A stretch of DNA of 64,000 bases from Patescibacteria group bacterium (GTDB lineage: Bacteria > Patescibacteriota > Microgenomatia > Daviesbacterales > UBA10151). Location: NCBI GenBank assembly GCA_023379125.1, contig JAMCSY010000025.1, forward strand, positions 252 to 64,251, read 5' to 3'. The notes under the pieces are model-generated. The model searched no databases. It worked only from the letters and a program-made list of their open reading frames with translations, and had not been told where the DNA came from. This document shows, in pieces, positions 30,553-56,230 of this stretch (position 1 is the stretch's first letter; each line of letters starts with the position of its first letter). The position numbers and the translations under genes were made by a program.

Positions 30553-30626
30553 GGTCGGGGTGGGGAGAGTTGAACTCCCTACATCTGGACCCCCAGCCCA
30601 GCGTTCTACCGGTGAACTACACCCCG
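30553..30626 (-). tRNA. tRNA-Pro (anticodon GGG)
   Basis: Hand fold: 7-bp acceptor C1:G72 with A73, U8, A14, G18G19, anticodon loop CUGGGGG (U33, G37), T-loop TTCAACT; the 3' end encodes CC then G, so the CCA is incomplete. Confidence 0.85.
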
Positions 30627-36507: not shown

Positions 36508-37484
36508 TGAATAAAAGAGTTGATATATCTTATCGTACGGTTGTTTTTATCACGATTTTTTTCCTGCTTTTATGGATCCTTTTTTTGATTCGAGACATTA
36601 TTTTACTGCTTTTTGTCGCCTTCATCTTTATGTCGGCAATTTCACCATTAGTCGAAAGATTAGTTAAAATTAGAATACCTCGCCCACTCGCTATTTTAAT
36701 CTGTTTTATTTTTATAGTTGGAGCTTTTATCTTGATGGTGACATTTGGATTTACACCATTAATTAATCAGATTGCTGGATTATCGGAAAAATTAGCAGAT
36801 ATCATTGGGACTTTGGTTAATTCAAAATTTGTCGATCAATCGATCATCAATCAAGAGTTGAGTAGCTTGTCTCATCAAGTAATTAATTTTACTGTGGGTT
36901 TATTTGAGAATTTAATTGGCTTTGTCAGTGTAGTAGTAATGACTTTTTATCTGTTGTTAGACCGGGAGAAAATTGAAGGTAAAACAATTGGTCTTTTTAC
37001 TGGAAATCAAGAGAAGGTACAAAGATTAATTAGGAAAATTGAATATAAACTAGGTGCTTGGTTGAGAGGTCAATTAATATTATCGGCTTTAATCGGCATT
37101 TTGTCATATACAGGTTTGCGCATATTAGGGATTGAGAACGCTTTGCCACTTGCTATTTTGGCGGGATTTTTAGAAGTTGTGCCAGTAATTGGTCCAATAA
37201 TCTCTGCCATTCCAGCAATTTTACTTGCCTTAACTATTTCGCCTTTCACTGCTGCCTTGGTTGCCTTATTATATTTAGCGATTCAGCAATTAGAAGGACA
37301 TATTGTGGTACCACAGGTGATGAAGCGAGCAGTTGGGTTAAATCCTTTGCTAGTCATCCTTGCTATCTCGGTTGGGGGACGTTTATTAGGTATAGCTGGA
37401 GCACTACTCGCTGTTCCTATTGCTGTTGTTATCCAAGTGATAATTGAAGAGGTTCTAACCCCTTCTCATCTGCATGAGATTTGA
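36507..37484 (+). CDS. AI-2E family transporter (PerM/YhhT-like)
   Basis: 8 TM; C-terminal PLLVILAISxGGxLxGIxGALLAVP motif; ATG overlaps the miaA TGA (ATGA). Confidence 0.8.
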   Translation: MNKRVDISYRTVVFITIFFLLLWILFLIRDIILLLFVAFIFMSAISPLVERLVKIRIPRPLAILICFIFIVGAFILMVTFGFTPLINQIAGLSEKLADIIGTLVNSKFVDQSIINQELSSLSHQVINFTVGLFENLIGFVSVVVMTFYLLLDREKIEGKTIGLFTGNQEKVQRLIRKIEYKLGAWLRGQLILSALIGILSYTGLRILGIENALPLAILAGFLEVVPVIGPIISAIPAILLALTISPFTAALVALLYLAIQQLEGHIVVPQVMKRAVGLNPLLVILAISVGGRLLGIAGALLAVPIAVVIQVIIEEVLTPSHLHEI

Positions 37485-37510
37485 TATAGATTACCTGAAA
37501 ATGGTATAAT
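37482..37510 (+). promoter_or_regulatory. sigma-70-like promoter (TTGATA-N17-TATAAT)
   Basis: Near-consensus hexamers with 17-nt spacer, located directly upstream of the RNase P-like element. Confidence 0.55.
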
Positions 37511-37517
37511 TTTTGTG

Positions 37518-37700
37518 CCTAGGAGGTGGACGATACTCAGAAGTAATTTTGAGAGGAAAGTCCAGACAGCATAGAGTAAGGTGCCCGCCACAAGGCGTGG
37601 AGCCGTAAGGCCTAGTTAGAGTAACAGAGACGAGCTGGGTGGCGCCAGATGAAACGATCAAGCGACTGGATTCCATAATTTTGTGGAGACAATCCTCCCT
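37518..37700 (+). ncRNA. rnpB: RNase P RNA-like element (type A-like P4 and 3' motifs; apparently lacks the S-domain; 3' boundary uncertain)
   Basis: GAGAGGAAAGTCCAGACAGCATAGAGTAAGGTGCC matches bacterial CR-I (GAGGAAAGUCCGGGCUCCAUAGGGCAGGGUGCC) at ~28/33 positions; downstream AGATGAAACGATCAAGCGACTGGATTCC resembles the AGAUGAAUGAC...ACAGAACCCGGCUUA region, with CTGGATT complementary to the P4 5' strand; GNRA hairpin gccGTAAggc. Confidence 0.5.
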
Positions 37701-37909
37701 GCTGCAATCCTAGAATTAGTCGGACTACTCGTCCTAAGACTTAAATCAGGAGCACTCCGTCAAATACGGAGATGAAGTGACTTTTTAATCACATCATAGA
37801 TAAATTTCGTCAGCTTAATAGAATTCTCAATAATATTAAGCGACAGAATCTGGCTTACAGCTTCCTAGGCATTGAGAGAATCTCAGATACTTCTTTTCAA
37901 ACTCCTTGC

Positions 37910-39304
37910 TTGCTTCAGGGAACTACTTTGTTTAAACTAAAAAATGTGAATGATGTTGACCTTACTCTAAGTCAGAAACATTTGGTTTTAGTTTTTGCTT
38001 ATGCTCCCACAGGATTAGGCCATCTACGAGTTACAGAAGCGCTCTATCGAGGTTTAGCACCTGAAGTGAACTCAATATTACTTCGAGCACAAGATTCTCA
38101 AGGTGAGTTTTGGCATTATGTGACCAGTATCATGCCTGGTGGACCTGCTTTTTTAGAATGGTCGCAAAAAGGGTTGCCAGAACTTCTTTTTACAAAAGTC
38201 TATCGCTTTCTACTTCGTTCTCAAACTAAGACTTTATATCAGCAAATGTCTACTATTCTTGATGAAAGGATTGAGTTACCAAAAACTGTTTTGGTGGTAG
38301 CTACTCATTTTGGTTTGGCTCACCAACTGGCTCAGATAAAGGAAGCGCTAGAACTAGATAAATGGGTAAAAATTATTTTAGTTGTTCAGGTAACTGATGA
38401 TACGGATCAACATATCTGGTATGTACCTGGAGCAGATATGATTTTTGTTCCGAGTGAAAAAACTAAAAAAGCTTTGGAAAGTTATGGAAAAATACACAAT
38501 CTACCACCAGTCCGTTTTGAAGTTTTACCTTATCCAATTACGCCTGCTTTAGCGGAAAAGTTAACAGCAGAACAAATGCAAAACAAACTCGCTCAATTAG
38601 ATAAAGATAGTAAAAGTATGATTGAAACAGCAATTCCTATTTCCGGGGCAGCAGTAGGAATGGATTTTTCTTTAATCTTGATGGATGAGTTACATAAATT
38701 ATCAGCCCGTTTCCGTTTTTGTATTATTTCTCGTTATGCTTCCTACACACAGCCGTTTTTGGCAAAATTAACGGAAAGACAGTTCGCTGAGTTAGAAGTA
38801 TCACCTTCAACTAGAGAGATAGTTGATAAATATGAAGATGTTTATGAGCGAAAGGTTATCTCTTTGGAAATGACCAAGCCGAGTGAGCAGGCATTTAAAG
38901 CTTTGTTTAATCCTAACCAAAGAGGAGGTTCAATTTTGCTTTTTGCTAAACCTGTCGGTAAACAAGAATATGATAATTTAGATTTTTTAAGAAGACATGG
39001 GTTAATTCCTCTAGAATCTGAACAAAAGGCTTTATGGCAGAAAGCAGCTAGAGGTTTGCCCTCAGATGGTTTAGGAGGGGAAGAGGTAGTGCAAAAAGCT
39101 GCACACTGGCGAGGTATCATCATACCTCATCAGCCAAAACACGCTGCACAATTTATATGGTGGTGCCTAAATGAAGGGTTATTTACTGCAATGGCTGGTT
39201 CATTTATTGAAGCAAGAGACTATAATCATACAGATGAGCTGGGTAGCGATGGTGTGCAGAAATTCTGGAAAAAAATTGCGCAGTTAGTAAAAGAGGTAGG
39301 TTAG
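37910..39304 (+). CDS. putative GT28-family glycosyltransferase (MGDG-synthase/MurG-like)
   Basis: N-terminal VLVFAYAPTGLGHLRVTEAL resembles the GT28 Gly-rich loop. Confidence 0.4.
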   Translation: MLQGTTLFKLKNVNDVDLTLSQKHLVLVFAYAPTGLGHLRVTEALYRGLAPEVNSILLRAQDSQGEFWHYVTSIMPGGPAFLEWSQKGLPELLFTKVYRFLLRSQTKTLYQQMSTILDERIELPKTVLVVATHFGLAHQLAQIKEALELDKWVKIILVVQVTDDTDQHIWYVPGADMIFVPSEKTKKALESYGKIHNLPPVRFEVLPYPITPALAEKLTAEQMQNKLAQLDKDSKSMIETAIPISGAAVGMDFSLILMDELHKLSARFRFCIISRYASYTQPFLAKLTERQFAELEVSPSTREIVDKYEDVYERKVISLEMTKPSEQAFKALFNPNQRGGSILLFAKPVGKQEYDNLDFLRRHGLIPLESEQKALWQKAARGLPSDGLGGEEVVQKAAHWRGIIIPHQPKHAAQFIWWCLNEGLFTAMAGSFIEARDYNHTDELGSDGVQKFWKKIAQLVKEVG

Positions 39305-54904: not shown

Positions 54905-56230
54905 ATGGATAGAACACTTATTATTGATTGTAATAACAAGATAGCGGAAGTTGTACGAGTCTTTGGTTGGGTACAAGTTAGGCGTGATCATGGCAAAATA
55001 GTTTTTTTAGATGTTTTAGATAGGTCAGGAGTAGTTCAGGTGGTGGCTACAGAAGGTTTGGCAGGTGATTTAAGAAGCCAAGATGTGATTAGTATAGAAG
55101 GTAAGGTTGCTAAAAGACCAGATAATTTAATTAACCCTAATTTGGAAACAGGCACAATCGAGCTACAAGCAAGCAAGATTGAAGTACTAGCCAAAGCAGA
55201 AGAATTACCCTTTGATATGGGTAATAAAGACCTTAACCTGCAGCTTCCTACTCTATTGGATTACCGAGGATTGACCTTAAGGCATCCCAAAGTCAAGGCA
55301 GTTTTTAAAGTTCAAGAAGTTGTGATTGATGCTTTTCGTGAAGCGCTACAGAAAAAAGATTTTACTGAATTTCAATCACCAGTAATTATTCCACAGACAG
55401 CTGAAGGTGGCGCTGAGGTTTTTGAAGTCAAATACTTTGACCACAAAGCTTATTTAGCCCAAAGTCCACAGTTTTATAAACAAATTCTAGTCCCAGTTTT
55501 TGAAAGGGTTTTTACTGTTAATAAAACACTACGAGCGGAGCCATCAGTAACTACGCGTCACTTAACTGAAGTGACTACATTAGATGCAGAGTTTGGCTTT
55601 ATCAAAAATTGGGCAGAAATAATGGAAATGGTAGAGTATGTTATTAAATATATTTTTGAACGCGTAGCTAAAGAGAATCAGACTGAATTAAAGTTATTAG
55701 ATGCAAGTGTGCCCCAGACCTCTCGTGAAATTCCCCGTATTAAGTTGAGGCAGGTACAAGAAATCATTTATCAAAGAACTGGACGTGATAATAGGCAAGA
55801 GCCAGACTTACAGCCCGATGATGAGCGAGAAATTTGTAAGTGGGCGCAAGAAGAACATCAATCAGAATTAGTTTTTGTTACTCATTATCCTGTTAAAAAG
55901 CGACCTTTTTATACTTTTGAAGATCCAGAGGATCCCGGATATACACTCAGCTTTGATTTGATTGGCAGAGGTACAGAATGGTTAACAGGTGGGCAAAGGA
56001 TTAATGATTTGGAAAAATTAATTGCTAACGCTGAAGAACGTGGTATAGATTTAAAAAGAAGTGAATTGTACTTGCAAGCGTTTAGATATGGTATGCCACC
56101 AGAAGGCGGATTTTCCTTTGGGTCAGAAAGAATTACTCAAAATATTCTAGGCTTAGAGAATGTCAGACAAGCTTCTTTGTTTCCTCGAGATATGGAGAGA
56201 GTCGATATCAGATTATCCTCGCAAAAATGA
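54905..56230 (+). CDS. aspS: aspartate--tRNA ligase, archaeal/type-2 (~440 aa, likely non-discriminating)
   Basis: N-terminal OB anticodon-binding domain (VxGWVxxxRDxGxxxFLxLRD), class II motifs 1-3 (FRNE-like, GGGSERI). Confidence 0.9.
   Translation: MDRTLIIDCNNKIAEVVRVFGWVQVRRDHGKIVFLDVLDRSGVVQVVATEGLAGDLRSQDVISIEGKVAKRPDNLINPNLETGTIELQASKIEVLAKAEELPFDMGNKDLNLQLPTLLDYRGLTLRHPKVKAVFKVQEVVIDAFREALQKKDFTEFQSPVIIPQTAEGGAEVFEVKYFDHKAYLAQSPQFYKQILVPVFERVFTVNKTLRAEPSVTTRHLTEVTTLDAEFGFIKNWAEIMEMVEYVIKYIFERVAKENQTELKLLDASVPQTSREIPRIKLRQVQEIIYQRTGRDNRQEPDLQPDDEREICKWAQEEHQSELVFVTHYPVKKRPFYTFEDPEDPGYTLSFDLIGRGTEWLTGGQRINDLEKLIANAEERGIDLKRSELYLQAFRYGMPPEGGFSFGSERITQNILGLENVRQASLFPRDMERVDIRLSSQK

Follow-up and report, generated by a model that had tools for sequence, protein, structure and literature searches.

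A predicted full-length type A RNase P RNA gene that scores below the Rfam gathering cut-off in a probable candidate-phyla bacterium

Results

The locus and its surroundings

In the window analyzed in this study, a 64-kb stretch of DNA, a noncoding element was identified as very probably rnpB; it would encode a complete RNase P RNA of bacterial type A, ~358 nt long and with a two-domain fold. This assignment was made from the sequence and its homologues; the features of the locus are collected in Table 1. The predicted promoter matches the consensus at 11 of 12 positions and carries an extended -10 element (TGgTATAAT, 37502-37510). The near-consensus sigma-70 promoter of the original prediction was thereby recovered, with a spacer of 18 nt in place of the 17 nt that had been given. 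Transcription would be expected to start at ~37515-37518, a few bases upstream of P1, and 23 of 26 homologues have a TATAAT-like hexamer (at least 5 of 6 matches) whose end lies 1-11 nt before P1. Expression of rnpB is predicted to depend on a dedicated promoter of the extended -10 class.

The next gene on the same strand (37946-39304, 452 aa) begins 74 nt after rnpB; its open reading frame has 464 codons' worth of protein (464 aa), and the called gene uses a later GTG start. The three bases after the only tRNA gene of the window are CCG rather than CCA. A regular-expression scan of all open reading frames in the 64-kb window returned no RnpA-like "RNR" motif.

Match to the Rfam class A model

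The alignment to RF00010 (Rfam class A) spans 37518-37873 and covers model positions 1-367 of 367, with a score of 86.2 bits and an E-value of 1.4e-26 when an 801-nt region was searched (1.1e-24 for the whole window). It was the sole RNase P match in the 64 kb, and class A was the top-scoring member of the RNase P clan for this locus. The original prediction of a bacterial type A RNase P RNA was thus upheld, as was, for default thresholds, its remark that covariance models fail: the gathering cut-off of RF00010, which sets membership of the family, is 100 bits, and rnpB falls below it. Because of this shortfall, a gathering-threshold Rfam scan of the window reported the tRNA alone and missed rnpB, which was recovered in E-value mode. 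The score was drawn down to 86 bits by A/U-rich helices and by the shortening of P12-P14. Among eight close homologues, six scored 104-125 bits against the same model and the other two 93.5 and 99.2 bits; the deficit of rnpB is therefore quantitative. The fold was more stable than those of shuffled sequences (z = -5.68), and the length of ~356-358 nt is ordinary.

Table 1. Positions of the predicted rnpB gene and its elements in the window
Feature	Position	Strand	Description or support
Predicted sigma-70-type promoter	37481-37510	+	-35 TTGATA 37481-37486; -10 TATAAT 37505-37510
rnpB, full-length type A RNase P RNA	37515-37872 (longest P1)	+	RF00010 match, fold z, covariation
P1, 5' strand	37515-37527	+	pairs with 37860-37872; 92% of cells paired, 11/13 pairs compensatory
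P2, 5' strand GACGA	37529-37533	+	pairs with UCGUC 37807-37811
P3 hairpin	37536-37553	+	7 bp, GUAA loop; RNAalifold prediction with compensatory changes
CR-I GAGGAAAGUCCAG	37553-37565	+	RF00010 alignment, P4 covariation
P4, 5' strand AAGUCCAG	37558-37565	+	bulged U37561; pairs with 37850-37856
P5, 5' strand	37567-37570	+	pairs with 37701-37704; 100% paired
P6 pseudoknot, 5' strand GAGUA	37574-37578	+	pairs with P17 loop UACUC 37726-37730
S-domain	37579-37700	+	P7-P12, CR-II, CR-III, P13/P14-like hairpins
P7	37579-81/37698-700	+	100% paired, compensatory changes
P8	37584-37600	+	84% paired, compensatory changes
P9 gccGTAAggc, GUAA loop	37602-37611	+	86% paired, compensatory changes
P10	37614-15/37695-96	+	96% paired, compensatory changes
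P11	37618-22/37689-93	+	99% paired, compensatory changes
CR-II AACAGAGA (ACAGAGA), J11/12	37623-37630	+	aligned to consensus cACAGAAA; invariant block in 25 homologues
P12, 4-bp stem and hexaloop GUGGCG	37635-37648	+	76-92% paired, compensatory changes
CR-III AUGAAACG, J12/13	37649-37656	+	aligned to consensus GGUGAAA; conserved in 25/25 homologues
P13-like hairpin, AUC/GAU stem, loop AAGCGACUG	37657-37671	+	loop covaries with L12
P14-like hairpin, UCCAU/GUGGA	37672-37687	+	shortened form of a longer helix in relatives
P15-P16-P17 arm	37708-37751	+	P15 37708-11/37748-51, P16 37716-21/37738-44, P17 37722-25/37731-34
P18 hairpin	37755-37771	+	5-6 bp, A-rich loop
Extra hairpin between P18 and CR-IV	37772-37797	+	outside the E. 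coli-type model
CR-IV AGAUAAAU, J18/2	37798-37805	+	RF00010 alignment, homologue alignment
P19 hairpin between P2 3' and P4 3' strands	37813-37841	+	optional in relatives
CR-V ACAGAAUCUGGCUUA	37843-37857	+	true P4 3' strand is 37850-37856

Homologues and covariation

The CR-I pattern was used to collect 25 homologues, most of them from candidate-phyla bacteria of the Microgenomates type; the conserved blocks follow one another in identical order in these sequences. The closest relatives of the RNA occur in metagenome-assembled genomes (MAGs) of Daviesbacteria, Microgenomates, Woesebacteria and WWE3. [quoted passage not shown] A metagenome scan with TGAAACGAYCAAGYNNNNGG gave mostly chance matches, with an RNase P RNA at 5 among the at least 120 loci listed.

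Helices P1, P2, P4-P12, P15 and P17 were supported in the 25 homologues, mostly through compensatory changes. RNAalifold, applied to the 25 sequences, recovered P1, P3, P4, P8, P9, P12 and P17; of the 49 pairs, 33 showed compensatory change. Over the whole proposed structure, 79.4% of the cells were paired, compared to 68.2% in shuffles (none of 500 did as well) and 34-49% when the partners were slid. The percentages for P2, P3, P18 and P19 are underestimates, as MAFFT misaligned the variable hairpins; these elements were rechecked sequence by sequence using anchored scripts.

Catalytic domain

In the proposed fold, the catalytic domain would comprise P1-P5, the P4 and P6 pseudoknots, P15-P18 and P19. 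All five conserved regions (CR-I to CR-V) were found in canonical order, aligned to the model consensus and conserved in the 25 homologues. The CR-I/P4 stretch GAGGAAAGTCCAGACAGCATAGAGTAAGGTGCC is present at 37553-37585, as had been predicted, and RF00010 aligns CR-I there. P4, formed between CR-I and CR-V, is paired in every one of the 25 homologues, three of which show a double change from A-U to G-C, and its strands are ~285-290 nt apart, as in E. coli, not the ~110 nt originally proposed. P2 occurs in the relatives as at least eight different sequence pairs (e.g. GGAUGAU/AUCAUCU, GGACAGU/ACUGUCU and AGUAAUCG/UGAUUACU). For P6, 85% of the cells are paired and four of the five pairs are compensatory, GAGUA/UACUC in the window being replaced by GAGCA/UGCUC in relatives. 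P15 is fully paired with 4/4 pairs compensatory, and P17 is 80% paired. Points against the assignment are the sub-threshold score, a P2 of only 5 bp, minimal P13 and P14, a non-GNRA L18, and an L15 without GGU, the 3' side of this loop being AUC (37745-47).

Specificity domain

The S-domain of the proposed fold would consist of P7-P12, CR-II, CR-III and two short hairpins at the position of P13/P14. From this position, the two hairpins probably correspond to P13 and P14 of E. coli. The P12 stem varies among CUGG/CCAG, UCGG/CCGA, CCGG/CCGG and CCGA/UCGG.

It had been predicted that this domain (CR-II/CR-III and P10-P12) was missing, which is contradicted by both the RF00010 alignment and the covariation. 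Several of the motifs named in that prediction were located correctly. The GNRA hairpin gccGTAAggc is P9. The AACAGAGA element is also real, but it is CR-II of the S-domain and not mere spacer. The stretch AGATGAAACGATCAAGCGACTGGATTCC occurs at 37647-37674, where its reading as the 3' region of the RNA was mistaken: AGAUGAAACG, likened to the conserved 3' AGAUGAAUGA region (CR-IV), is aligned by RF00010 as CR-III, and CTGGATT, taken for the 3' strand of P4, is located in the P13-like hairpin. The domain appeared to be missing because the first reading ended ~200 bases too early; the element had been closed at 37800, and the RNA continues to 37872-37873. At its real length, it is neither an RNA of ~180-270 nt restricted to the catalytic domain nor smaller than the known bacterial minimum.

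Some relatives are genuinely small (L034, 269-271 nt; L067, 273 nt; L015, 281-283 nt). They reach this size by dropping P13/P14, P18 and P19, and even they keep the S-domain core of CR-II, P12 and CR-III; none is therefore a catalytic-domain-only RNA.

L12-L13 contact and extra hairpin

The truncated P12 (4 bp and a hexaloop GUNNCG) and the loop of the mini-P13 (AAGYNNNNG) form a candidate loop-loop contact. In the window, the pairs would be G37641-C37666, G37642-C37663 and C37643-G37662. In the 11 of 11 sequences having a mini-P13, 33 of 33 cells are complementary, with pair types GC/UA/AU and GC/AU; no shuffle of 500 did as well, and slid controls reached 9-42%. The short hexaloop P12 was found only together with the mini-P13 hairpin. 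These patterns suggest, at about even confidence, that the window RNA belongs to a sub-lineage of candidate-phyla RNase P RNAs in which the usual docking of L13 to the P12 helix has been replaced by a Watson-Crick kissing contact between L12 and L13.

Of 26 relatives, 11 have both P18 and the extra hairpin that follows it, and the sequences differ among them. Neither this hairpin nor the L12-L13 contact was found in the literature searched, the coverage of which mostly excluded the classical comparative literature on RNase P; both are put forward as modestly new observations.

Alternative readings

Three other accounts of the locus were weighed. It is improbable that rnpB is a decaying or redundant copy, with RNase P activity coming from a second rnpB or a protein-only enzyme (e.g. 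HARP) elsewhere in the genome. The sub-threshold Rfam score and the short, A/U-rich P2 and P12-P14 would fit such a pseudogene. Against it, the RNA retains its five conserved regions, the two pseudoknots and the bulged U in P4, the promoter is intact, and related genomes have a single similar gene. Moreover, the changes relative to relatives are compensatory, not disruptive: C-G for U-A in P2, U-A for C-G in P6, A-U for G-C in P7, and U-A for C-G in P11.

Less probable again is that the locus belongs to the 452-aa gene downstream, as its 5' untranslated region or a cis-regulatory leader, and yields no stable RNA. The shared strand and the short intergenic distance are compatible with a leader, and between the two genes no strong intrinsic terminator was detected, only weak candidates. 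Against this reading, the locus matches a ribozyme family from end to end (E ~1e-26), and the homologues lie in differing gene contexts, some of them followed by clear terminators. The downstream protein was assigned to no recognised family and showed no link to tRNA processing.

The catalytic-domain-only mini RNase P RNA of the original prediction, in which P4 was formed by AAGUCCAG (37558-65) and CUGGAUU (37666-72), drew on the partial complementarity of these strands in the window sequence alone, and on the scale of the small relatives, but is refuted by the RF00010 alignment, by the covariation of P7-P12 and by a direct test of its P4, and has almost no probability left. In that test, 61.8% of the helix was paired, compensatory changes were lacking altogether, and the result did not surpass shuffles. 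One of the pairs (G/A) forms in no sequence, 12 of the 25 homologues do not have the 3' partner at all, and the canonical CR-V lies downstream. Of the P1-P4 pairings, P1, P2 and the canonical P4 were supported by covariation and the proposed P4 was not; the Rfam models did match an RNase P RNA, but over its full length, S-domain included.

Discussion

As a full-length type A RNase P RNA, rnpB is assigned its probable function from membership of the family. Together with the RnpA protein, the RNA would remove 5' leaders from pre-tRNAs. Recognition of the tRNA, at the corner between T-loop and D-loop, would fall to the S-domain, and the catalytic metal ions would be positioned by the P4 core.

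The value of the locus is mainly corrective: it provides no case of a bacterium that dispenses with the specificity domain of RNase P. It illustrates that the default cut-off of RF00010 misses a genuine rnpB in reduced, A/T-rich candidate-phyla genomes. Since rnpB scores 86 bits and yet has an E-value of ~1e-26, MAGs described as having "no RNase P RNA" need to be rechecked by E-value. In this lineage, CR-II and CR-III are kept, but the periphery of the S-domain (P12-P14) and P18/P19 appear to have been cut back or rearranged.

Comparison with known systems

The type example of the bacterial class A RNase P RNA (RF00010) is M1 RNA of E. coli. The window RNA has in common with it the order of CR-I to CR-V, helices P1-P5, P7-P12 and P15-P18, the P4 pseudoknot with its bulged U, the P6 pseudoknot, and GNRA loops on P3 and P9; the overall length and the spacing of the P4 strands (~290 nt) also match. 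It differs in that P12 is cut to 4 bp and a hexaloop, P13/P14 are hairpins of 3 and 5 bp, L15 lacks GGU, L18 is non-GNRA, an additional hairpin follows P18, and P19 is present. Type B RNAs have P5.1, P10.1 and P15.1, which are absent from type A. The type A hallmarks, namely P6 with P16/P17 and hairpins at the P13/P14 position, were found in the window RNA.

The GGU of L15 pairs with the 3' CCA of tRNA; it is common but not universal, being absent in cyanobacteria and in most CPR. The RNase P RNA of Mycoplasma fermentans, at 276 nt, is an example of a minimal bacterial one. The window RNA is not minimal, whereas the relatives L034, L067 and L015 reach that size.

The literature search returned no papers joining RNase P RNA with Patescibacteria by name, but diverged, sub-threshold RNase P RNAs in CPR genomes have already been reported (PMC8172020; see also PMC8457005 for background). 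Lui, Nielsen and Arkin (2021) found that the RNase P RNAs of 10 of 35 circularised CPR genomes fell below the RF00010 cut-offs, that many lack or reduce P13, P14, P16 and P17, and that the L15 UGG motif is missing in 23 of 35 (PMC8172020). The window sequence (GCA_023485375.1) is not discussed there. Like many of those RNAs, it falls below the cut-off or is without the L15 motif, both of which hold for it; it is among the more complete ones, in that it keeps P12, P16/P17, P18 and small hairpins of the P13/P14 type.

Identity and extent of the RNase P RNA

The RNA at 37515-37872 (+) is a genuine, ordinary rnpB with a complete type A fold. The 64-kb window was scanned with Rfam at gathering thresholds, which returned one tRNA alone, and then at E-value thresholds. 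In the latter mode, the whole of RF00010, the bacterial class A model (positions 1-367 of 367), aligned to 37518-37873 (+) with 86.2 bits (E = 1.4e-26 when computed on the region, 1.1e-24 on the entire window), below the curated cut-off of 100 bits; the same search of the window gave no second RNase P match. The original prediction had described a catalytic-domain-only RNA ending at 37800, with CR-II and CR-III missing and ~110 nt between the P4 strands. All of the strings that it quoted were located in the window. In the RF00010 alignment, however, AACAGAGA is CR-II, and AGAUGAAACG, which had been taken for the conserved 3' region, is CR-III. CR-IV and CR-V sit further 3', partly beyond 37800, and the P4 strands (37558-37565 and 37850-37856) are therefore ~290 nt apart, the spacing that had been quoted for E. 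coli. Judging from family membership, the RNA and RnpA would together cut 5' leaders off pre-tRNAs.

The promoter lies a few bases 5' of P1. As predicted, it is near the sigma-70 consensus (11 of 12 positions, with a TG extension), but the spacer is 18 nt, not 17. A TATAAT-like hexamer was present at the same place in 23/26 homologues. The downstream gene (37946-39304, +) had been called a glycosyltransferase; its 452-aa product had no Pfam match at E ≤ 0.001, and the public gene call carries no family.

Elsewhere in the window, a Phe_leader-like element (RF01859; 54359-54483, +) reached 52.4 bits, below its cut-off of 55 (E = 7.7e-08 on the region). It features A/T-rich hairpins and a terminator-like stem with a U-run, ca. 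420 nt ahead of the gene for a class II aminoacyl-tRNA synthetase (54905-56230), and could be an attenuator-type leader or a mere terminator.

Features of the RNase P RNA, its promoter, the tRNA gene and small relatives (window positions unless a locus is named)
Feature	Position	Strand	Basis or remark
Promoter -35, TTGATA	37481-37486	+	consensus match
Promoter -10, TATAAT, TG extension	37505-37510	+	consensus match
CR-I block, GAGGAAAGTCCAGACAGCATAGAGTAAGGTGCC	37553-37585	+	string located in sequence
Hairpin gccGTAAggc	37602-37611	+	string located in sequence
CR-II, J11/12, AACAGAGA	37623-37630	+	aligns to RF00010 consensus cACAGAAA
L12 hexaloop	37639-37644	+	three positions complementary to P13-like loop
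AGATGAAACGATCAAGCGACTGGATTCC	37647-37674	+	string located in sequence
CR-III, J12/13, AGAUGAAACG		+	aligns to RF00010 consensus GGUGAAA
Loop of P13-like hairpin	37660-37668	+	three positions complementary to L12
Extra hairpin, AUGAAGUGA...UCACAUCAU	37772-37797	+	between P18 and CR-IV
CR-IV, AGAUAAAU	37798-37805	+	RF00010 alignment
CR-V, ACAGAAUCUGGCUUA	37843-37857	+	RF00010 alignment
tRNA-Pro(GGG) gene	30553-30626	-	single tRNA gene in window
Small RNase P RNA, L034	5427-5698		269-271 nt
Small RNase P RNA, L067	6931-7205		273 nt
Small RNase P RNA, L015	887-1170		with L034 and L067, ~269-283 nt

Homologues

One genome per species was scanned with a CR-I pattern, yielding 72 loci (numbered with the prefix L), many of them in MAGs of the candidate phyla radiation (WWE3, Daviesbacteria, Woesebacteria, Microgenomates, Saccharibacteria); a metagenome scan contributed at least five additional loci among the matches listed. 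An identical copy of the RNA (L001) resides on GCA_023485375.1, contig JAMCZV010000021.1, which also has the window's miaA gene. Coordinates of the window and of this contig go out of step by one base over 37873-37946, the stretch that separates the RNA from the downstream gene. The nearest relatives were L058, L045, L034, L017 (from a Daviesbacteria MAG; 68% identical over 351 nt) and L015 (from a Microgenomates-group MAG). All conserved blocks were kept in identical order in these, and the peripheral hairpins varied in presence, absence or length. Six of eight relatives tested against RF00010 scored 104-125 bits, above the gathering score, and the other two 93.5 and 99.2; the window RNA thus belongs, with a slightly lower score, to a group accepted by Rfam.

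Several MAGs recorded as "uncultured Gammaproteobacteria bacterium" bear Microgenomates/Daviesbacteria-type RNase P RNAs (L058, L045, L034, L036, L052, L014, L020, L028, L070, L008, L072), and these labels look wrong.

Secondary structure and covariation

RNAalifold, applied to a 25-sequence alignment, predicted P1, P3, P4, P5/P7, P8, P9, P12 and P17, and 33 of the 49 pairs had a compensatory double change in at least one sequence. The full structure was also written out and counted over these aligned sequences, P4 and P6 being treated as pseudoknots. Standard pairs were formed in 79.4% of cells, compared to 68.2% in shuffles (0/500 were as high); when the 3' partners were slid by 1-3 columns, 34-49% of cells were paired. 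Because P2, P3, P18 and P19 were misaligned by MAFFT, they were examined per sequence with anchors. P2 was built from eight or more distinct pairs of complementary sequences among homologues (GACGA/UCGUC in the window, GAUGA/UCAUC in close relatives), and P18, the second hairpin and P19 folded locally wherever present. The whole RNA folded far better than shuffled controls (z = -5.68).

Pairing of individual helices in the 25-sequence alignment
Helix	Cells paired	Compensatory changes
P1	92%	11/13 pairs
P4	100%	A-U to G-C in 3 sequences
P5	100%	1/4 pairs
P6 (pseudoknot)	85%	4/5 pairs; GAGUA/UACUC in window, GAGCA/UGCUC in most relatives
P7	100%	2/3 pairs
P8	84%	5/6 pairs
P9	86%	3/3 pairs
P10	96%	1/2 pairs
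P11	99%	1/3 pairs
P12	76-92%	4/4 pairs
P15	100%	4/4 pairs
P17	80%	3/4 pairs

The P4 originally proposed (AAGUCCAG with CUGGAUU, 37666-37672) was paired in 61.8% of cells, indistinguishable from shuffles, with no compensatory changes; one pair never forms, and the 3' partner is missing from 12/25 homologues. Instead, CUGGAUU makes up the 3' half of a small hairpin (stem AUC/GAU here, ACC/GGU in relatives) that occupies the P13 position. Because this P4 fails the pairing test and its 3' strand belongs to another hairpin, the reading without an S-domain is refuted: the original observation was right in part, and its headline interpretation was wrong.

Peripheral elements

After CR-III, a hairpin of the form AYC-AAGYNNNNG-GRU was found in 11 RNAs (the window RNA, L058, L045, L036, L052, L014, L091, L088, L096, L148 and L109). 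P12 in all 11 is a 4-bp stem with a GUNNCG hexaloop, and this short P12 was found only alongside the AAGYNNNNG hairpin. Three positions of the two loops are Watson-Crick complementary in 33/33 cells, the pair types being GC/UA/AU and GC/AU, a result equalled by 0/500 shuffles. This complementarity suggests a candidate loop-loop (kissing) L12-L13 contact, which would replace the usual docking of L13 into the P12 helix. The peripheral contacts of type A RNAs and their role have been described (L8-P4, L9-P1, L18-P8, P13/P14; PMC8457005).

The extra hairpin directly 3' of P18, which the E. coli-type model lacks, accompanied P18 in 11/26 relatives, with differing sequences; two Chloroflexota MAGs (L044, L027) are among these.

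The classical minimum for a bacterial RNase P RNA is 276 nt, and the small relatives in L034, L067 and L015 are at or below it. They lack P13/P14, P18 and P19, retain CR-II, P12 and CR-III, and scored 108-125 bits against RF00010, above the Rfam cut-off. The sizes and scores of L034 and L067 mean that this lineage does contain very small RNase P RNAs; small size is reached by trimming of the periphery, with the S-domain core retained.

Comparison with published candidate-phyla RNase P RNAs

L15 of the window RNA (37745-37747) is without GGU, the motif that pairs with the tRNA 3' CCA, and tRNA-Pro(GGG) is followed by CCG, so that a 3' CCA is not encoded. This agrees with the report on the majority of RNase P RNAs from the candidate phyla radiation, in which the UGG motif was missing from 23/35 (PMC8172020). 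In that study, Lui, Nielsen and Arkin found the RNA only below the RF00010 cut-offs in 10 of 35 circularised genomes; P13, P14, P16 or P17 was missing in many, and P12 or P18 in some (PMC8172020). Sub-threshold RNase P RNAs in candidate phyla are an already published phenomenon, to which the window RNA adds a further, comparatively complete example.
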